From Clostridia bacterium (GTDB lineage: Bacteria > Bacillota > Clostridia > TANB77 > CAG-508), in NCBI GenBank assembly GCA_017456555.1, contig JAFTJF010000007.1:3257-67256 (forward strand): a stretch of DNA of 64,000 nt, in the 5' to 3' direction. A program made the translations under genes and the position numbers. Positions 7,947 to 32,567 of this stretch are shown in pieces. Below the pieces are notes generated by a model. The model did not search any database and had not been told where the DNA came from. It was given only the letters and a program-made list of their open reading frames with translations. Numbering within the stretch: the first letter of the stretch is position 1; each line of letters starts with the position of its first letter.

Positions 7947-10894
<2,948 letters not shown>

Positions 10895-18364: not shown

Positions 18365-19432
18365 TTAACATGGAAATTTTGCTCTTATTTCATTTATTTT
18401 ATCTAATTTATTTTCTAAAATGTTTAGCATAACATTTGCAGCTTCTGGATCGAATTGTGTTCCTATCCCTTCTTTAATTTGATTTTTTACATATTCTAAA
18501 TCCATTTCATCTCTATAAGAACGTTTTGATGTCATTGCATCAAATGCATCTGCAACACTTACAATTCTTGCTAAAAATGATATTTGATCTCCTTTTAATT
18601 TTTGTGGATATCCATTTCCATCATATCTTTCATGGTGTGAATAAATAATTGGAACAATATCTCTAAAAATTGAAGATGTTGATACAATTTGTTTTCCTAT
18701 TGATGGATGTTTTTTCAACTCATTGTATTCTTCATCTGTTAGTTTAGATGGTTTTAATAAAATTGTATCTGATATACCTATTTTTCCAATATCATGGAAT
18801 AATCCACCAATTCTTAATGTTGCAATATCTTTATCATAAAGCCCCAACTCTTGTCCTATTAAAACAGAATATGCAGAAACTCTATCTGAATGGCCTCTTA
18901 TATAAGTATCTTTTGCTTCAACTGTATATCTTAACATTTGTATTGTTTCTAAATATGCTTTTTCAATTTTATCTTTTGAAGCTTTTAATTCTTCATTCAT
19001 TTCTTTTATTGTTTGCATTTGTTCTATAGATTTAAATGCAGATTCAATAAGCAATAATAATTGATCAAATTTATCTTCTTTTTCACAATAAGCTTGAATT
19101 GATAATCTTTTTATTGTTTCTAGTGGTGGCACTAAATCCTTATGACCTGTAAGTAAAATAATATATAATTCTTTATTAAATTTTCTAATTTCTTCAACAA
19201 CAGTATCTCCATGTATTGGTGACATCATAAAGTCTAATAACATTAAATCATATTTTTCATTTTTTACTTTTTCTATAGCTTCATATGGATCTGTACATCC
19301 AACTAATGTATATCCAGAGTGTCTTAAAAATACAGATAATGAATCTATAATTCCAATCTCATCATCAACTGCTATAATTTTATAATTTTTATTTTGATTT
19401 TCATTTTCATTTTGTTGTGCTGAAAGTCTCAT
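18365..19432 (-). CDS. REC-HD-GYP response regulator (cyclic dinucleotide phosphodiesterase, RpfG-like)
   Basis: AVDDE and LLD receiver motifs; GHSDRV, LFHDIGK, HHERYDGNGYP, DAFDAMTSKRSYR; ATG 19432 after GGAGG. Confidence 0.93.
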   Translation of the reverse strand: MRLSAQQNENENQNKNYKIIAVDDEIGIIDSLSVFLRHSGYTLVGCTDPYEAIEKVKNEKYDLMLLDFMMSPIHGDTVVEEIRKFNKELYIILLTGHKDLVPPLETIKRLSIQAYCEKEDKFDQLLLLIESAFKSIEQMQTIKEMNEELKASKDKIEKAYLETIQMLRYTVEAKDTYIRGHSDRVSAYSVLIGQELGLYDKDIATLRIGGLFHDIGKIGISDTILLKPSKLTDEEYNELKKHPSIGKQIVSTSSIFRDIVPIIYSHHERYDGNGYPQKLKGDQISFLARIVSVADAFDAMTSKRSYRDEMDLEYVKNQIKEGIGTQFDPEAANVMLNILENKLDKINEIRAKFPC

Positions 19433-19451
19433 AGTATACCTCCACAATTTA

Positions 19452-21455
19452 TTAATTATTCATTGGTAAATATATTTTAAATTCTGTACCTTTGTTTGAA
19501 GTTTCAAGTTTTATATCACCATTAAATTTTGCTTTTATCATTGAATATGACATAAACACTCCAAGTCCAGTTCCTTCTTTACCTTTTGTTGTTATCATTT
19601 CTTTAAATAATTTATCTTTTATATTGTCTGGGATTCCTGGTCCATAATCTTTTACAGAAATTAAAATTTTATTATTTTCTAATTTTGCACTTAAATCTAT
19701 CGATTTATTTGGTTCCTTTTTATAAGCTTGTATAGCATTAGAAATTAAATTGTTTAATACTTGTACTAAACTATTTATATTTCCTTTTAAAATCACATCA
19801 TTGCTAACATCATTTTTTATATTTAGAGTTACTAATGCGGATTGAAGTTCGTGTTTCATTAAAATATTTGTGTGGCTAAATAATTCTTTTATAGTGAAAT
19901 CAACGGTGTCATCTCCAGATAAATTAACAGCTTGTCCTTTTACTGTTGTAATTACTTCAGACATATATGATAATTGACCTTTAATTTTTTGAAGCCAAAC
20001 TTTCATATCACTCGCAATTTCATGCATATCTTGTTCATTAACTTGTGGATTTCCAATTGATGCATCAAACTCATTTACTAAATCTGTTAGACCTGCTACA
20101 CCACCAGATATAGAGAATATTGGTGTTTTTAAACTGTGTGCAATACCACCAACCATTTGTCCTAAAGATGCTAAACGTTCTCTTTCTACAAGCATATTTT
20201 GTTTATTATGAATATCTTCTATTTGAGCATTATTTAATTTTTGAATATCATTAAATGCAACAACTAAATCTCCAATTTCATCATTTGAAACTACTGGTAA
20301 AAGAATTTCTTTTCCACTTTCATTACAAATATTTCTAAATCCTTTATGAATTTGTCTTAAAGATTTTGAAATAGATGATGAAAATATTGCTATTATTATT
20401 GCACTAATTGCAGCTAAAAATAATGCTGTTAAAACTAAATAATTTAAAGCTGTTTTAGAAAAAATATCATATAAAATTCCTATATAAACATTTCCTGTAT
20501 CTGTTTTTAATTTTATAGAACTTCCTTGAGTATCTACTCCATAGCTATCATATAATCTTCCATTATTTTGTTCAGAAATTTGAATTGTATACTCTACAAT
20601 AAAATTACTTATTTCTTCACCCTTTAGCATTTCATAAGTTTTATCTTGATTTAAAATAAATACTCTATCAGTATCATTATATAATTCAAAACCATTTGCA
20701 ATTTCTTTTATTTCAGCGTTTGTATAAACTTTTTCTGTGTCAAATTTCTCTGTTAAAATTTTATTATATACGCTATACAAAACATCTTCTTTTTCTATTA
20801 CACTTACTGAATATCCAACTAAAGCTGTAAGAATAATTGCAGCTATACAAATTGGAAATACTAGTATCATAATTCTTTTTCTTAAGCTAACTCTAAAACC
20901 AATGTCTGAACCTTCAATATATGTTTGTGTTAAAATTTCATCATATAAATTCTTTGAAAATATGAAAGACACAACACCTAACAATATTGAAAATGATGCT
21001 AATAATATTATTATTTTTGCAATCATTATACTTAAGTGGCTACCCGTTAAAGATAAAACTAGTATTGTTATTATTGATGGTGTTAAAATCTCAAACATAT
21101 AAAATTGATATGGTAGTGTTAAACATTTTTTTCTAATTAATTTTATTTGTTCTTTATCACTATATCTTTTGGTTAAAGACATTTTATACCATTTATCAAT
21201 ATCTTTTAATGCAAACTTTGTGAAAAATACGATTCCTAATACAATTACAATTCCTAAAATCAAAAATTGTGTATTAAAAGATATGTATGACATTTGAACA
21301 TCAAATGGAGTATTTATTGTTCCTGGTCCATAATTTAAAATTTTAGGTATTATCATCATCAAAATTAATATAATTATAAATGCTATAGCAGCATATCTAA
21401 AAGAAATTATATTACTTGGTGTACTATTCCATTTTATTTTTTTCTTATTTCTCAC
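19452..21455 (-). CDS. Multi-TM sensor histidine kinase with HAMP
   Basis: About 6 TMs, DEIGDLVVAFN HAMP, IAHSLKTP H-box, NLISNA, DYGPGI, GTGLG. Confidence 0.93.
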   Translation of the reverse strand: MRNKKKIKWNSTPSNIISFRYAAIAFIIILILMMIIPKILNYGPGTINTPFDVQMSYISFNTQFLILGIVIVLGIVFFTKFALKDIDKWYKMSLTKRYSDKEQIKLIRKKCLTLPYQFYMFEILTPSIITILVLSLTGSHLSIMIAKIIILLASFSILLGVVSFIFSKNLYDEILTQTYIEGSDIGFRVSLRKRIMILVFPICIAAIILTALVGYSVSVIEKEDVLYSVYNKILTEKFDTEKVYTNAEIKEIANGFELYNDTDRVFILNQDKTYEMLKGEEISNFIVEYTIQISEQNNGRLYDSYGVDTQGSSIKLKTDTGNVYIGILYDIFSKTALNYLVLTALFLAAISAIIIAIFSSSISKSLRQIHKGFRNICNESGKEILLPVVSNDEIGDLVVAFNDIQKLNNAQIEDIHNKQNMLVERERLASLGQMVGGIAHSLKTPIFSISGGVAGLTDLVNEFDASIGNPQVNEQDMHEIASDMKVWLQKIKGQLSYMSEVITTVKGQAVNLSGDDTVDFTIKELFSHTNILMKHELQSALVTLNIKNDVSNDVILKGNINSLVQVLNNLISNAIQAYKKEPNKSIDLSAKLENNKILISVKDYGPGIPDNIKDKLFKEMITTKGKEGTGLGVFMSYSMIKAKFNGDIKLETSNKGTEFKIYLPMNN

Positions 21456-21475: not shown

Positions 21476-24400
21476 TTAAATAAAATTCACTTCTCTCATG
21501 TATTTTACTATTTTTTCTATATATTTTTTATCTATTTTTTTCCACTCTGATTTTAATAAACTTAAATATTTTTTTGTATATTCTGATTTTATATTTACTG
21601 AGAAATTATAGTCAATAGAAATATTTGAGTTTTTTGTATTATTTATATCATTTATAATTCCAAATAAAATTTGAGCATTTTTACTTTTTGAAATTTCAAC
21701 AATTCTTTCTTGAAAATCTTTTTCTGAAACTTTTTCTATATTAATTCCGAAAGAAACTAATACATCAATTATTTCTTTTATTTCAACAAAATTGTGATTA
21801 TACAAATGAAATACTTTATTATCTGCTATTTTATTTTTTGCAAGATTTATTATTGCTTTAGAACAAGTATCTACTGGAGTAAATTCAATTTTTTGTTCCA
21901 ACATTTCTTCAGATACACAACCTAATACTACCATAGATTTTATTCTTGTATAAAAAGCATTTTCATTTATATTTTCTTGGAATTTTCCATCTAGAGCTCT
22001 ACCAGATAAAATTCCAATTCTATGAATTTGTGCAACTAAGCTTTTTTCCATATATTCTAAAACAATTTTTTCTGCTTCAAATTTACTATTAACATATACA
22101 TTGTCCATATAATTTTGTCCAATATATAAATTATTTTCAGAAAATTCGACATTTCTATTATCTTGTTTTACTAAATAATTTCCAGAAACACTTATTGATG
22201 ATATATGTATAAATCTTAGCTTATTTTCATAAGAAAATTCTGCAACATTTCTTGTTCCCTCAATATTTATGGTTTTAAAATCTTCATAATTGCCATAATG
22301 TTTTACTCTTGCTGCTGTATGGATTACTGTTGATACACTATTTTTTATTTCTTTTATTATATTTTCATCAAGACCGATATTTTTCTCAGAAATAGAGCCA
22401 TCAACAACCAATACTCTTTTATCTAAATAATTTGACAAATCTTCATCAAAATAGAATTTATATTGTTCAATTAATCTATCTTTTGGTGACTTATCTTTTT
22501 TACCTCTAACTAAACAATATATTTTTGAAGTTGTAGTTTTTAAAATTTCATTTAATAAATGAATTCCAATAAAGCCATTAGCTCCTGTTAAAAATACATT
22601 TCCTAAAACTTCATTATCTAAATCTTTCTTATCTAGTACTTCTGATAATTCATCTATATTATGTTTAAATTTATCTGGTATTTGAGCATCTTGTTCTTTA
22701 TAAGTCGAATTATTACTGTCAATATTTTCAGCTAAAGTTCTTATTGTTGTATATTTATAAAAATCTTGTGTATTCAAATTATAATTATATTGAAGTAATA
22801 ATGTTTGAACTTCTATAATTCCTAAAGAGTCTAATCCAAGAACCATAAATGGAGTATCTATATCGACCTCTTCAACTTCTAAAGTTTTACATATAATCTT
22901 AGATAACGTTTTTTCTGTTTTTGTTTTACCTTTTTCTATATTTGATGTTTCAAGTTTTATTTTTGGAAGTTTTTTTCTATCAAGCTTACCATTTGGAGTA
23001 AGCGGAAATTTATCAATTTTAAAATATACTGCTGGTATCATATAGTTAGGCAAGTCTTTTAGTAAAATTGATGTTATTTTATTTGTATCTTGTTCTTCTT
23101 CTGAAATATAATAGCAAATTAAATATTTTTGATTTTCATCTGCAATTACAACATTATTTAATATTTCAGGAATTTGGTTTATTTTATTTTCAATTTCTTC
23201 AAGTTCAACTCTATAACCACGAATTTTAACTTGGAAATCTGTTCTTCCCAAATGAACAATTTCTCCACTATTTGTATAATAAGCTAAATCATTTGTATTA
23301 TATATTATTTGATTTTTCTCAAATGGAGATTTTACAAACTTTTCTTTTGTAAGTTCTTCTCTATTTAAATATCCATTTGATACACCATCTCCACCAATAT
23401 ATAATTCACCTGGTGTATATGTTGGAAGTAAATTTTTATCTTTATCTAATATATAACATTTTGTATTTGCAATCGGTTTACCAATTGTAATCATATTTTT
23501 TGATTTTATTTTTTTAATAGTTGACCACACTGCTGTTTCTGTTGGCCCATACATATTAAATATATTTGCTTTTGTTAAGTTTTCAAATTTTTCTACAAGC
23601 CCTTTTGGAAGCCCTTCACCACCAACCATTATATCTGTCATATTTTTAATAAATTCTGTTGTATTTTTATTTTCTAATAATGCTTTAAATCTTGATGGAG
23701 TTGTTTGAATCATTGTTACATTATTTTCTAAACATACTTTATTTAATTTTTCAGAATTATTTTGCTCTAACTCATTTGCCAGTACTAAAGTCATTCCAGA
23801 AGTTAAAGCTCCCCAAAATTCTAAAACAAATATATCAAAACATATTGTTGTTATTGAAACCATTACTTTTTCAGGAGCAAATTTAATTATTTCTTTTGTT
23901 CCTAGTAAAAAGTTATTTATATTTTTATGTTTTAGCATAACTCCTTTTGGTTTCCCAGTTGAACCAGAAGTATATATTAAATAAATTAAATCTTCTGGTT
24001 TTATACTTTCTTCAACTTCAACATTTTCTCTATTATAAGCAGTTGACTCTAAGCCAATATCAACTTTTTTAATATTTAATTTTTCATTTATAATTTTTTG
24101 AGTTTTCTTATTAGATAATAGCATTTTAGCACCACTATCTAATAACATATATTCTATTCTCTCTTCTGGATATTCTGGATCTATTGGAAGATATGCCCCA
24201 CCAATTTTTAATATTGCTAAAAGTCCAATTGCAAGTTCTAAAGAACGATTAACACAAATACCTATAATATCTTTATATTTTGCACCTTCTAGTTTTAAAC
24301 TATTAGCTAAAATATTAGATTTTTCATCTAATTCTTTATATGTCATACTTCTATTTTCAAAAATTACAGCTTCTTTTTCTGGGTATTTTTTTACCATTTC

Positions 24401-25786
24401 TTTAAAATATTTTATAACATTTTTGTTTTTATTATATTTTAAAGTTGTATCATTAAAATCCACTAAAAGCTTTCTTTTTTCGTTTTCAGTAATTATTTCA
24501 ATATCTTTAATTAAAACTTTATCAGTATCTAAAATTCTATTAATCATTTCCATAATTCTAGAATGCATATTTTTTACATATTCATCAGAATATTTCAATT
24601 TTTTAAAATCATAACATACTGTTAATATTCCTTCTTCATCTAAATCTAAAAATTGTATAGTCATATCATCAGTTACATTTTTATTAAATGCCCATCTTGT
24701 TGAATATTTGTATTCAGTTTCGTTGTTAGCTTTTGTTAATTGATATGAAAGAACAATGTTATATAAATTTGGAACTGAAGAATCTTTTTTTCTTAGCTCT
24801 TCTAATAACATTTGATATGGATATTTTTGATGTCTAAGTAAAGAAACAGTATCTTTAGAAATTTCATTTGCAAAACTAATAAAGTCTGTATCTGGTTCCA
24901 CATTTACTTTAAAAGGAACAACATTTACAAACATTCCTACAATGTTTTTTTCTTTAAAATTAGTTCTATTTAATATTGGAGTACCAATACTAAATTCCTT
25001 TGAATTAATGATTTTTGAAATATAAACCGAATAAACAGCCATAAGGAAATTAAATACTGTAAGCTTATTTTTATTACAATATTCATTAATTAATTTCATT
25101 TTGGCTTTAGGAATAGAGAAAGTTAATCTTTCTCCAAGGCATGAAAATTCTGTATTTTTCTCAGAACTATCTGAAGGTAAAATTGCTGGATTTATATTAT
25201 TTGAAAATAACTCATTCCAGTATTCTTTATCTTTTAAAAATTTTGAACTATTAAAATATTCTTTTTCATTTTCTGCATAATCAATATATGAAAATTCTAC
25301 ATCTTCACTAGCAATATTATTTTTTATATTTGAATATGCTTTCATTATTTTTCTACAAGTTAAACCTAAAGTCCAACCATCAGAAAGAATGTGATGAATG
25401 TTTAATAAAAATCCACCAGCACCATTTTCAAATCTAAAAATTTTAAATTCATATAAAGCTGACTCAAATAAAGAAAAATGTTTTGCCATAAGCATATTTT
25501 CAATTTGATCAACTTCTGATTTATCTTTTATATCTATAATTTCAATATCTGGAATTGTTTTCTCAGATATAAATTGTTTTACTTCATTTGCTTTTTGAAT
25601 TAATTGAATATGAAAAACATCATTTTCTTTTATTACTGTTTCTATTGCTTGTTTCAAAGCATCAAAATCAAGAACAGAATCTATAATTGCTGTTCCACAA
25701 ATATTATTAACAGAAGTATTTTTATAAAACTTTTCTGTAAGTAGTATTGATTTTTGTGGATATGTTAAACTAACTAATTTTTTCAT
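21476..25786 (-). CDS. Single-module NRPS C-A-T-R (terminal thioester reductase), predicted Gly-activating
   Basis: C: HHILSDG; A: YTSGSTGKPKG, YGPTE, QVKIRGYRVE, NGKLDR; T: LGLDSL; R: TGANGFIG, YVNSK. Confidence 0.93.
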   Translation of the reverse strand: MKKLVSLTYPQKSILLTEKFYKNTSVNNICGTAIIDSVLDFDALKQAIETVIKENDVFHIQLIQKANEVKQFISEKTIPDIEIIDIKDKSEVDQIENMLMAKHFSLFESALYEFKIFRFENGAGGFLLNIHHILSDGWTLGLTCRKIMKAYSNIKNNIASEDVEFSYIDYAENEKEYFNSSKFLKDKEYWNELFSNNINPAILPSDSSEKNTEFSCLGERLTFSIPKAKMKLINEYCNKNKLTVFNFLMAVYSVYISKIINSKEFSIGTPILNRTNFKEKNIVGMFVNVVPFKVNVEPDTDFISFANEISKDTVSLLRHQKYPYQMLLEELRKKDSSVPNLYNIVLSYQLTKANNETEYKYSTRWAFNKNVTDDMTIQFLDLDEEGILTVCYDFKKLKYSDEYVKNMHSRIMEMINRILDTDKVLIKDIEIITENEKRKLLVDFNDTTLKYNKNKNVIKYFKEMVKKYPEKEAVIFENRSMTYKELDEKSNILANSLKLEGAKYKDIIGICVNRSLELAIGLLAILKIGGAYLPIDPEYPEERIEYMLLDSGAKMLLSNKKTQKIINEKLNIKKVDIGLESTAYNRENVEVEESIKPEDLIYLIYTSGSTGKPKGVMLKHKNINNFLLGTKEIIKFAPEKVMVSITTICFDIFVLEFWGALTSGMTLVLANELEQNNSEKLNKVCLENNVTMIQTTPSRFKALLENKNTTEFIKNMTDIMVGGEGLPKGLVEKFENLTKANIFNMYGPTETAVWSTIKKIKSKNMITIGKPIANTKCYILDKDKNLLPTYTPGELYIGGDGVSNGYLNREELTKEKFVKSPFEKNQIIYNTNDLAYYTNSGEIVHLGRTDFQVKIRGYRVELEEIENKINQIPEILNNVVIADENQKYLICYYISEEEQDTNKITSILLKDLPNYMIPAVYFKIDKFPLTPNGKLDRKKLPKIKLETSNIEKGKTKTEKTLSKIICKTLEVEEVDIDTPFMVLGLDSLGIIEVQTLLLQYNYNLNTQDFYKYTTIRTLAENIDSNNSTYKEQDAQIPDKFKHNIDELSEVLDKKDLDNEVLGNVFLTGANGFIGIHLLNEILKTTTSKIYCLVRGKKDKSPKDRLIEQYKFYFDEDLSNYLDKRVLVVDGSISEKNIGLDENIIKEIKNSVSTVIHTAARVKHYGNYEDFKTINIEGTRNVAEFSYENKLRFIHISSISVSGNYLVKQDNRNVEFSENNLYIGQNYMDNVYVNSKFEAEKIVLEYMEKSLVAQIHRIGILSGRALDGKFQENINENAFYTRIKSMVVLGCVSEEMLEQKIEFTPVDTCSKAIINLAKNKIADNKVFHLYNHNFVEIKEIIDVLVSFGINIEKVSEKDFQERIVEISKSKNAQILFGIINDINNTKNSNISIDYNFSVNIKSEYTKKYLSLLKSEWKKIDKKYIEKIVKYMREVNFI

Positions 25787-25819
25787 ATTCTACATCCTAA
25801 AATATTTTATCACAACAAA

Positions 25820-25847
25820 ATTATATCTTAACTTCCTTAAAAATCAA
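25820..25847 (-). promoter_or_regulatory. Putative sigmaA promoter of the NRPS operon
   Basis: TTGATT-16bp-TATAAT on the - strand. Confidence 0.55.
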
Positions 25848-25925
25848 GATACTTCTAGTATTTGTATAAAATATATTTTTATAAAATTTTATATAAAAAA
25901 TTTACACAATATTTAATTTATCTTT

Positions 25926-30962: not shown

Positions 30963-31538
30963 TTATTCTTCCTCAATTGGTCCTACTATTTCACCAATTT
31001 GTTTTAAAACTTCTTCAACATTTTCTATATTTTTAATTTGGAATCCGTTTAAATATCCAGAACCTGGAATAACTCCTTTGGCATAAACACATAAGTCACC
31101 AAATCCAAATTTCTTTTGTCTACGGGTTTGGAAATATCTTACATCAGCAATTTCTGAATATTTTACAACTTTAGTTACATCCATAAATAAAAATTTAAAA
31201 GTATATACAGCTTTTTTCTCATAAAAAACTGCTTTTGTAGCCATTGCTAATCTTTTATCTACAAAAAGCACTAGTCCAATAACTGCTGCAAATATTAATA
31301 CAACAGCTAGTGCCTCTAAAAATCCACCAGCAGACACACATAATATTATTGAAAGTATCGCTAAAATGATTAATTCTGTGCATTTTGATATTTCATAATT
31401 AATAGAATATTTTCTTTTTAATTTTAATTTTTCGTTAGTATCTTTTTTTAAATCTTCTTCCTCTTGGAATTCTTTGTAACAGTTAGTACAAATATCTCCA
31501 TCTTTTTTTAATTTAGCTCCACAAATTCTACATTTCAT
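30963..31538 (-). CDS. Zinc-ribbon, 2-TM, bacterial PH-like domain protein
   Basis: CxxC...CxxC, two TMs, 'I.DV...QT..QK.FGFGDL' typical of bPH domains. Confidence 0.6.
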   Translation of the reverse strand: MKCRICGAKLKKDGDICTNCYKEFQEEEDLKKDTNEKLKLKRKYSINYEISKCTELIILAILSIILCVSAGGFLEALAVVLIFAAVIGLVLFVDKRLAMATKAVFYEKKAVYTFKFLFMDVTKVVKYSEIADVRYFQTRRQKKFGFGDLCVYAKGVIPGSGYLNGFQIKNIENVEEVLKQIGEIVGPIEEE

Positions 31539-31558: not shown

Positions 31559-32567
31559 TTAAAAAATTCTTAAAATATCTTTATAAGACACATAAAGTGA
31601 TAGTAAAATTAATAGTAAAAAGCCAGCTGATTGTATCCCTAATTCTATTTCTTCTTTTAGTGCTTTTCCTCTTATTCCTTCAATAATTAGTAAAACTATT
31701 CTTCCTCCATCTAATGCTGGAATTGGCAAAAGATTTGTTACTCCTAAAGATAAGGAAATTAAACATAATAAATATATAAAATTATATATTCCATCAGATT
31801 TTACTACTATTTCAGAAATTCCGATTGGTCCTGTCATTTGATCGATTTTTATATTTCCAGTAAACAATAATTTTACTGATTCAAACATTGATTCAACAAA
31901 ATTTACTGTTTCCCAAAATCCATAATATAATTTTTCTTTCCAAGTTGCATCAATTAAAGCAACTTGAATACCTAATATATAAGTATTTTCTTCGTATTCT
32001 GTTGGTTTTACATTGAATTCTAATTCTTCGCCATTTCTTTCAACAACCACTTTAACTTCACTTCCATCAGATCCATATAAAGCACTTGATATATCTGATT
32101 TTAATCTAATTTTCTCATCATTTATTTTTATGATTTTATCACCGAATTTCAATTCCTACTAAATTAGCTTGTGCTTCTGGAATAATCTCACTAACTGTTG
32201 TTGAAATATTATATCCAGAAAAGATTGATAAGAAAAAGAATACAATAATCGCAAAAATAATATTTACTATTGCACCTGCTGCAACAATTATTATTCTATG
32301 AAGAACTTTGGCTTTATTAAATGAGCCTTCATCTTCACTTCTTTCTTCTTCTCCAAGCATTTTTACATATCCACCAAAAGGAATACATCCAACAGTATAT
32401 ACAGTTTCTTTTCCCTTTTTAGTAAATATTTTTGGTCCAAATCCTATAGAAAATTCTTCAACTTTTACTTTGAAAAATCTTGCTGCTAAGAAATGACCTC
32501 CTTCGTGTATAAAAACTAAAAATCCTAATAAAAATATTATTTTAAAAGCGTTAATTAAAAATGTCAA
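31559..32567 (-). CDS. rseP: RIP metalloprotease RseP, split by a +1 frameshift at CGG 32144-32142 (about 335 aa if rejoined)
   Basis: HEGGH in the 5' part; PDZ 'GIEI|GDKIIKIN' across the junction; NLLPIPALDGG in the 3' part; sequence ATT-C-GGT-GAT. Confidence 0.9.

Follow-up and report, generated by a model that had tools for sequence, protein, structure and literature searches.

Nonribosomal peptide synthetases (NRPSs) of gut Clostridia, from which Guo and colleagues reportedly obtained dipeptide aldehydes and pyrazinones in 2017, begin with a condensation (C) domain and end in a thioester reductase (R) domain; ruminopeptin, of the rup cluster of Ruminococcus bromii, is one example. Here we compare these and other described systems with an NRPS gene (21476..25786, minus strand) in a 64,000-nucleotide stretch of contig JAFTJF010000007.1 (referred to as a whole as the window), from a Clostridia bacterium of the GTDB family CAG-508. 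The gene heads a cassette of three, the others encoding a sensor histidine kinase and a response regulator with receiver (REC) and HD-GYP domains. With the gut peptide-aldehyde synthetases the window NRPS has in common the terminal R domain, the N-terminal C domain and homologous bimodular relatives. It differs from them in having one module (rather than the two that lead to a dipeptide), in its glycine specificity code and in its obligatory kinase partner. An earlier note on this DNA had described the enzyme as unlike the gut dipeptide-aldehyde NRPSs. This is right as to the single module, but the enzyme is homologous (34-48% identity) to bimodular C-A-T-C-A-T-R relatives (A, adenylation domain; T, thiolation or carrier domain) that have the same kinase partner.

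Other NRPSs resemble the enzyme in part. In linear gramicidin synthesis, the terminal Gly-T-R module of LgrD acts with the reductase LgrE to turn glycine into ethanolamine. Both LgrD and (by prediction) the window NRPS load glycine and release it reductively, but the LgrD module is the last of 16 and a second enzyme is needed to make the alcohol. Among proteins of solved structure, LgrA gives the best sequence match to the window NRPS (779.5 bits summed over two stretches). The best NCBIfam model is AusA, the aureusimine synthetase of Staphylococcus aureus, of which the second module and R domain are matched at 771.8 bits. This score is far under the cut-off of 2500, thus the window NRPS is not an AusA. 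AusA is organized as A-T-C-A-T-R, with two modules and no N-terminal C domain, and its products cyclise to pyrazinones. The fatty acid amide pathway of gut Clostridia, built from the free-standing OaaC, OaaA and OaaACP, shares a type of C domain that uses fatty acyl donors, a donor that is predicted for the window enzyme. In contrast to the window NRPS, the Oaa pathway has free-standing domains, uses free amines as acceptors and has no reductase, and the portions of its description available to us mention no kinase partner.

Two signaling systems are comparable to the cassette. The Rpf/DSF system of Xanthomonas consists of the synthase RpfF, the polytopic sensor kinase RpfC and the REC-HD-GYP regulator RpfG. 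The cassette has the same architecture of a kinase with multiple transmembrane (TM) helices and a REC-HD-GYP regulator, along with a predicted lipid-like signal. However, the synthase is an NRPS and not a crotonase-type enzyme, the kinase is non-hybrid by Pfam, the phylum and the signal chemistry differ, and signaling is predicted here. In the agr system of staphylococci the hypervariable region comprises part of agrB, agrD and the agrC sensor. Shared with the agr pherotypes is a contiguous variable block that combines the specificity-determining portion of the signal-making machinery with the kinase's sensor half and is flanked by a conserved kinase core and regulator. Unlike agr, the predicted signal is an N-acyl amino aldehyde or alcohol instead of a ribosomal thiolactone peptide, and the output is an HD-GYP protein instead of a DNA-binding regulator.

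The downstream kinase and HD-GYP regulator, which are conserved and were missed in the earlier note, change the most likely function of the NRPS. We predict that the three genes form one operon for making and sensing a small N-acyl-glycinal-type signal, with hydrolysis of cyclic di-GMP (c-di-GMP) as the output, and assign this reading a probability of about 0.5. The A domain would load glycine onto the carrier domain, and the N-terminal C domain would acylate the carrier-bound Gly, with acyl-CoA or the fatty-acid acyl carrier protein (ACP) as the source of the acyl group, either fatty or short. The R domain would release the thioester reductively to form N-acyl-glycinal, possibly followed by further reduction to N-acylethanolamine. 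Co-variation of the two proteins suggests that the co-encoded polytopic kinase has the lipid-like product as its ligand, and the domain content suggests that the kinase phosphorylates the REC-HD-GYP regulator, altering c-di-GMP hydrolysis. Exchange of a block comprising A-T-R and the kinase sensor would generate different signal and receptor types between species, the window representing the glycine type. For the substrate, acyl donor, release state, ligand recognition and output we rely on prediction from sequence. The operon is interpreted as the glycine-type member of an NRPS signal/sensor family because its block structure is that of systems in which signal maker and receptor must stay matched.

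Co-variation between the NRPS and the kinase was analyzed for 48 single-module loci with the ~667-aa kinase type. Loci with split kinases (L030, L045) and with a ~600-aa kinase (L039, L047, L052) were left out, and L009, in which the kinase is cut short, was left out of two kinase trees only. The A-domain codes of the single-module loci fall into classes. The Gly code DILQ[LM]G[MV][IV]WK occurs at 13 loci including the window (12 in the 48-locus set, without L030), DIFQ[MVI]AGIFK at nine, DLTKIGEVGK at seven, DFWNIGMVHK and DSELTAEVCK at six each, the Met-like DV[ASC]YLGGICK at four, and DIFLIG[LM]VYK at three (L042, L044 and L045, the last outside the 48-locus set). A second Met-like code, DVFYLG[GA]ICK, is found at the three loci with a ~600-aa kinase outside the set, and DVQFIAHVVK and DFWNIGGVFK occur once each. 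We take DLTKIGEVGK to specify Asn, DFWNIGMVHK Thr, DSELTAEVCK His and DVQFIAHVVK Pro.

Domains, motifs, gene linkage and co-variation are direct observations, and the last of these separates the kinase into two parts. The sensor half (residues 1-375; 20331..21455, minus strand) co-varies with the A-domain code. In its tree (made, like the next two, by IQ-TREE quick search) the seven multi-member code classes each form one clade with support of 100, and the eight code changes are the minimum possible. The kinase core (residues 410-667, the DHp and catalytic domains; 19455..20228, minus strand) tracks backbone history and not the code: its tree involves 22 code changes, and a single Gly clade is rejected (approximately unbiased (AU) test, delta log-likelihood 300.6, p 9.5e-6). 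The C-domain tree involves 14 code changes, with L013 (Gly) placed as sister to L034 (DIFQ) with support of 100. Pairwise identities (1128 pairs from the same 48 loci) have the same structure. Kinase sensors are 18-34% identical in different-code pairs and 34-99% identical in same-code pairs, whereas the two kinds of pair overlap broadly for the kinase core (22-93% and 29-97%, respectively), the regulator (62-99% in both) and the C domain (26-79% and 34-96%). Same-code and different-code pairs are thus told apart by three regions only, namely the sensor, the A domain and T-R. Sensors of different-code loci are at most 34% identical even where the core reaches 93% and the regulator 99%.

Individual pairs of loci localize the boundaries of the exchanged DNA. 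L025 (Gly) and L046 (Thr), from the same genus, are 95.1% identical in DNA from kinase residue ~413 through the regulator and flank. Similarity between them was not detected in the sensor-coding part of the kinase gene or in the upstream flank, and weak patches (66-83%) occur within the NRPS gene. L013 and L034 are 81% identical in DNA over the upstream flank and C domain to NRPS residue ~520. Past this point they share just two short matches, of 72-112 nt, before 81% identity resumes at kinase residue ~384 and continues to the end. There are 71 different-code pairs in which the cores are at least 72% identical, and in every one of them identity changes at kinase residues 384-426. From trees, identities and breakpoints, we therefore conclude that A-T-R and the kinase sensor half are exchanged as one block among relatives, sometimes together with the C domain.

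NRPS relatives were detected (E <= 1e-50) in 155 of the 201 genomes of the family; counted by genus they occur in 45 of 50, and among high-quality genomes in 133 of 168. Some have a single module (~1415-1500 aa), others are bimodular (~2470-2530 aa) or trimodular. These genomes are very small, yet most keep an NRPS of this family, thus the product is probably part of the basic biology of the group. The order to which the bacterium belongs is nearly all uncultured (119 of 121 species, according to the part of PMC13106387 available to us). For analysis of gene linkage we used 60 places in the family that were chosen before the kinase search (47 single-module and 13 multi-module, by rank), 15 related loci and the window. 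Removal of the duplicates L020, L028 and L037 left 73 loci, 71 of them with at least 2.1 kb of downstream sequence. A kinase homologue lies directly 3' of the NRPS gene, on the same strand, at all 71 of these non-redundant loci, and the HD-GYP regulator is within 4.2 kb at 53 of 70. The genes that flank the cassette in the window (polC and DUF1294 on one side, TPR and dpaA on the other) are shared with only L009, L010 and L016.

NRPS matches at E <= 1e-100 were obtained for 64 of the 399 genomes in a class-wide sample. Single-module loci from other families have the kinase in 11 of 12 cases, and a ~500-aa regulator is present at six of the 12. The distant multi-module loci of other Clostridia families lack it (0 of 8), and the kinase therefore marks a distinct subgroup. 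The DIFL, Asn and Thr code classes occur again, with the kinase and the ~500-aa regulator, at L084-L086, L090 and L091, which are from other Clostridia families with larger genomes. This points to transfer of the cassette between families or to an old polymorphism. One genome encodes two complete NRPS-kinase-regulator cassettes (L033, G076:C4, and L041, G076:C10), both of the DIFQ class, and another (G032) has one single-module and one bimodular NRPS. Two loci are from the genus of the window. At L078 (G191) a bimodular NRPS is followed by tandem kinases (597 and 615 aa) and then by the regulator. At L045 (G132), with a DIFLIGMVYK cassette, the kinase matches are in three pieces (437, 236 and 235 aa), and the kinase may be broken or duplicated.

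The window NRPS is encoded by one open reading frame (ORF) of 1436 aa with an ATG start. Pfam identifies a condensation domain at aa 4-441 (24464..25777; 1.1e-76), an adenylation domain at aa 461-934 (22985..24406; AMP-binding at 461-807, 7.3e-86, and AMP-binding_C at 864-934), a carrier domain at aa 960-1020 (22727..22909; PP-binding) and a thioester reductase domain at aa 1063-1436 (21479..22600; NAD_binding_4 at 1066-1312, 8.8e-48), all on the minus strand. The NCBIfam model for thioester reductases, TIGR01746, also covers residues 1063-1436, with a score (200.9 bits) slightly under its cut-off of 213.35. The C-A-T-R order that the earlier note had read from the letters is thus borne out, as are the motifs that it had listed for the C and R domains. 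The intact HHxxxDG is HHILSDG at aa 131-137 (25376-25396, minus strand), and the GxxGxxG and YxxxK of the R domain are located in TGANGFIG (1067-1074) and YVNSK (1231-1235). The A3, A5, A8 and A10 motifs of the A domain are present (SGSTGKPKG at 607-615, NMYGPTE at 744-750, GRTDFQVKIRGYRVELEE at 847-864 and NGKLDR at 932-937), and Ser987 of the T domain lies in GLDSL (984-988).

Seven residues of the window NRPS (H132, D136, D833, K934, S987, Y1231 and K1235) are unchanged in 48 of 48 single-module relatives, and G1068 and G1071 of the R domain are likewise invariant. The A7 motif is TND instead of TGD in nine of the 48. The dN/dS of the window NRPS against four relatives is 0.16-0.35, and all three cassette genes are under purifying selection. 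Given the invariant catalytic residues and these dN/dS values, the NRPS gene is not decaying. The closest NRPS (82% identity) is from a metagenome-assembled genome named Candidatus Scatovivens, a genus listed under GTDB order TANB77, family CAG-508, in the accessible part of PMC13106387. The genome from which the window derives (G000) is a 1.67-Mb assembly of 13 contigs, 88.5% complete and with ~26% G+C.

We assigned GrsA numbering to the A domain using the conserved anchor motifs, which we assume to correspond (1AMU matches the window NRPS at 181.8 bits). Pocket residues 651, 652, 655, 694, 720, 722, 745, 753, 754 and 934 read DILQMGMVWK, identical to the ten residues given in the earlier note. 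In the portion available of a study of 93 Gly-activating domains, the main codes vary at positions 299, 322 and 330, the Gly-derived residues are Leu/Met299, Leu/Met322, Ile/Val330, Trp331 and Lys517, and DILQLGMIWK is given as a Gly code (PMC12283262). The glycine code of NcmB is DILQLGVI (PMC5466765). DILQMGMVWK departs from DILQLGLIWK, the established glycine code to which the note had likened it, at exactly positions 299, 322 and 330, and it conforms to the pattern D-I-L-Q-[LM]-G-[LM]-[IV]-W-K throughout. The likeness noted before therefore fits the published Gly pattern, and because the match extends to every position, glycine is the best prediction for the substrate. The exact code DILQLGLIWK was not found in the literature searched. 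Module 2 of LgrA was considered as a glycine reference, but its aligned pocket is not of the DILQ type and gives no support for the glycine call.

The C domain has the position of a starter and may act as one. When 95 C domains of the related loci are placed in one tree, all 74 N-terminal domains separate from all 21 internal domains with support of 1.0, and that of the window falls within the N-terminal clade. This agrees with the starter-type C domain proposed earlier. There is one PF00668 match in the 88.5% complete source genome, that of the window NRPS itself, and the absence of an upstream module is likewise upheld. Profiles built from 64 N-terminal and 20 internal domains were scored against solved C domains. 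The internal profile clearly represents LCL elongation domains (TycC6, 464.2 bits; LgrA, 328), compared with just 189.9 bits on TycC6 for the N-terminal profile. The N-terminal profile is relatively better than the internal one on C domains that use acyl groups, scoring 143.5 vs. 68.2 bits on OaaC (PDB 12KH), 133.4 vs. 87.0 on the RzmA starter C and 68.5 vs. 45.1 on CDA C1. OaaC uses fatty-acyl-ACP, as stated in the available part of its description (PMC13142362).

The genome encodes two carrier domains, the T domain of the NRPS and the fatty-acid ACP (in a plsX-acpP-rnc setting). Four AMP-binding genes were identified, of which three are FadD-like ligases. With no other carrier-bound amino acid in the genome, acyl-CoA or acyl-ACP is the logical choice of donor. 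Genes for ketoacyl synthase (PF00109) were not identified in this genome (88.5% complete). Given plsX-acpP-rnc and the three FadD-like ligases, the organism may rely on outside fatty acids, and these may also feed the NRPS.

Release as the aldehyde rather than the alcohol is weakly favored, because the R domain scores nearer to the R domain of AusA than to four-electron reductases and there is no adjacent second reductase. Among solved R domains, that of the window NRPS is nearest to an archaeal NRPS PCP-R (205.6 bits), followed by the R domain of AusA (136.6), which releases an aldehyde. Scores are lower for the four-electron MxaA (102.7 bits) and for the R domain of M. tuberculosis Nrp (46.5 bits). 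A second reductase gene was not identified beside the NRPS among the cassette genes (Pfam).

The sensor histidine kinase (667 aa; 19452..21455, minus strand) begins 20 nt past the NRPS stop. Six TM helices are predicted in it, and it contains His440 and an HATPase_c domain. The response regulator (360 aa; 18365..19447, minus strand) begins 4 nt past the kinase stop, with Response_reg at 24-132 and HD_5 at 172-335. Its HD-GYP motifs are intact (HDIGK at aa 218-222 and HHERYDGNGYP at aa 271-281). The score of a NosR-family NCBIfam model on the regulator, 204.9 against a cut-off of 400, indicates that it is not that equivalog. A scan identified no terminator-like site between the three genes. A promoter-like site (TTGATT-16 nt-TATAAT; 25847-25820, minus strand) is present in the 139-nt gap upstream of the NRPS gene (25787..25925), as a consensus match only; such sites are no commoner in the region than in shuffled sequence (78 vs. 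75.4).

An AlphaFold model of kinase residues 1-420 (46-sequence alignment, pLDDT 85.6) predicts a helical membrane bundle and a HAMP-like linker, along with an alpha/beta domain that is placed between TM5 and TM6 and would be extracytoplasmic. A fold search with this model returned one match at E <= 0.001, an integrative model of WalK. Weak fold matches (4zr7, TM-score 0.54-0.57) suggest a Cache/PDC-like domain at residues ~240-330. Pfam detects just a weak HAMP match (E 7e-4) in the sensor and no HisKA_7TM, a domain by which the ~600-aa kinases beside bimodular relatives differ from it. A transporter gene was not identified in the cassette by Pfam. The window has no match to any Rfam family, c-di-GMP riboswitches included, and neither RF01051 nor RF01786 was found in the genome; the blank for RF01051 is uninformative, as it gave no match in control genomes either.

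Several findings weigh against the operon as a system that makes and senses its own signal. The source genome has two GGDEF matches, both weak, and 17 of 70 loci have no regulator beside the kinase. The TycC6 score given above for the N-terminal C profile is its top score on any solved domain, and TycC6 is an elongation C domain; on the SrfA-A starter C the N-terminal profile (131.3 bits) is below the internal one (148.5). Transferases of the AcpS type as a rule do not load NRPS carriers, yet the sole phosphopantetheinyl transferase match in the source genome (G000:C2:44839-45165) is of AcpS size. The same is true of all 41 family genomes searched, each of which has exactly one match with a frame of 103-169 aa (AcpS size), and most of these carry the NRPS. 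Use of AcpS for the NRPS carrier as well would be unusual. The constancy of the change-point within the kinase is weak on its own, because sensor halves outpace cores in any kinase. Furthermore, the coding regions for A-T-R and the sensor are adjacent on the DNA, thus one exchange could carry both without a functional link.

This last point leads to the explanation that selection diversifies the NRPS alone and that the adjacent kinase sensor is carried along, as a contiguous swapped stretch would allow. We consider this improbable: none of the 1128 pairs differ in code yet keep a similar sensor (the maximum is 34%), and random breakpoints should at times spare the sensor or extend into the core or regulator, whereas in 71 of 71 different-code pairs with cores at least 72% identical the change-point falls within kinase residues 384-426. 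Alternatively, the variable half of the kinase could contact the NRPS protein and not its product, for example if the R domain were docked at the membrane for export. T-R is also within the variable block and there is no transporter gene in the cassette, but the modelled PDC/Cache-like domain would be extracytoplasmic and could not reach a cytoplasmic enzyme, and we regard such contact as very unlikely. An equally slight chance is given to an idle C domain, with free glycinal (aminoacetaldehyde) dimerising to a pyrazine in the manner of the A-T-R enzymes that make pyrazine signals. The enzyme is a single module that ends in R, and pyrazine or pyrazinone autoinducers are known elsewhere (PMC11480411, seen in part). 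However, all 48 relatives retain His132 and Asp136, and purifying selection acts on the C domain.

The N-acyl amino aldehyde could instead function mainly as an outward electrophile and inhibit host or competitor proteases, with a kinase that only regulates or senses something else. This we find unlikely, despite the homology to bimodular C-A-T-C-A-T-R relatives, the proximity of the R domain to that of AusA among those of known function, and the proposal, in the parts available of two sources, that gut peptide aldehydes are protease inhibitors (PMC12327764, PMC8518294). It leaves unexplained why the sensor half always changes with the A-domain code, the HD-GYP regulator lacks a DNA-binding domain through which it could control the NRPS gene, and the subgroup marked by the kinase is distinct from the distant multi-module relatives that lack one. 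The earlier note had raised, as one of two outcomes, four-electron release of an N-acylethanolamine, an endocannabinoid-like lipid that would act on host receptors. The enzyme does have a glycine code and an R domain, and a different NRPS-like route in gut Clostridia yields fatty acid amides that are host-active (PMC10871352, PMC13142362, as far as the accessible parts of these sources extend). Nevertheless, the missing second reductase in the cassette and the lower R-domain scores on four-electron reductases than on AusA do not fit this proposal, and sister cassettes with Thr, Asn, His, Met-like and other codes are difficult to reconcile with a family dedicated to ethanolamides. Nothing in the analysis bears on the host. 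The structural claims of the note (architecture, glycine code, starter position) hold, but its host-active lipid is not borne out, and we consider it quite improbable.

Beyond the window, a tentative extension, to which we give somewhat less than even odds, is that CAG-508 and its relatives use such cassettes for cell-to-cell signaling. The one-module NRPS would produce an N-acyl amino aldehyde or alcohol autoinducer, the kinase would read its side chain, and the REC-HD-GYP regulator would bring about a change in c-di-GMP. There would be at least nine exchangeable types (Gly, Thr, Asn, His, Met-like, Pro and three further codes), generated by swaps of A-T-R plus sensor. The synthetase and kinase with co-swapped parts suggest a new kind of bacterial signal-receptor pair in gut Clostridia. 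The enzyme class is known, but a glycine-type single module that has an obligatory kinase partner and is exchanged by type looks undescribed. We found no NRPS with a histidine kinase and HD-GYP regulator, and no NRPS pherotypes, in the literature searched; the primary papers on the gut peptide aldehydes (Guo et al., 2017; Schneider et al., 2018) and their supplements were outside that search. In the same literature, N-acyl glycinal appears only as an intermediate of mammalian anandamide metabolism. If the kinase does read the NRPS product, the cassette would represent a non-ribosomal, lipid-like quorum signal with exchangeable types. It would also provide a direct path from a predicted small molecule to its receptor, with naturally matched signal/sensor pairs, and the known gut peptide aldehydes could be viewed as bacterial signals more than as inhibitors of host proteases.

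Other features of the window are separate from the cassette. A 191-aa ORF (30963-31538, minus strand) between polC and an M50 protease gene has no Pfam family, and its NCBIfam match is far sub-threshold. The protease, a site-2 protease with Peptidase_M50 and PDZ domains (31559-32567, minus strand), is represented by two overlapping ORFs, one of 142 aa that covers profile positions 2-115 and one of 197 aa that covers 102-221. The split may be due to a frameshift, an assembly error or a real division of the gene. The G+C content of window positions 8001-10000 is 0.371, compared with ~0.26 elsewhere.

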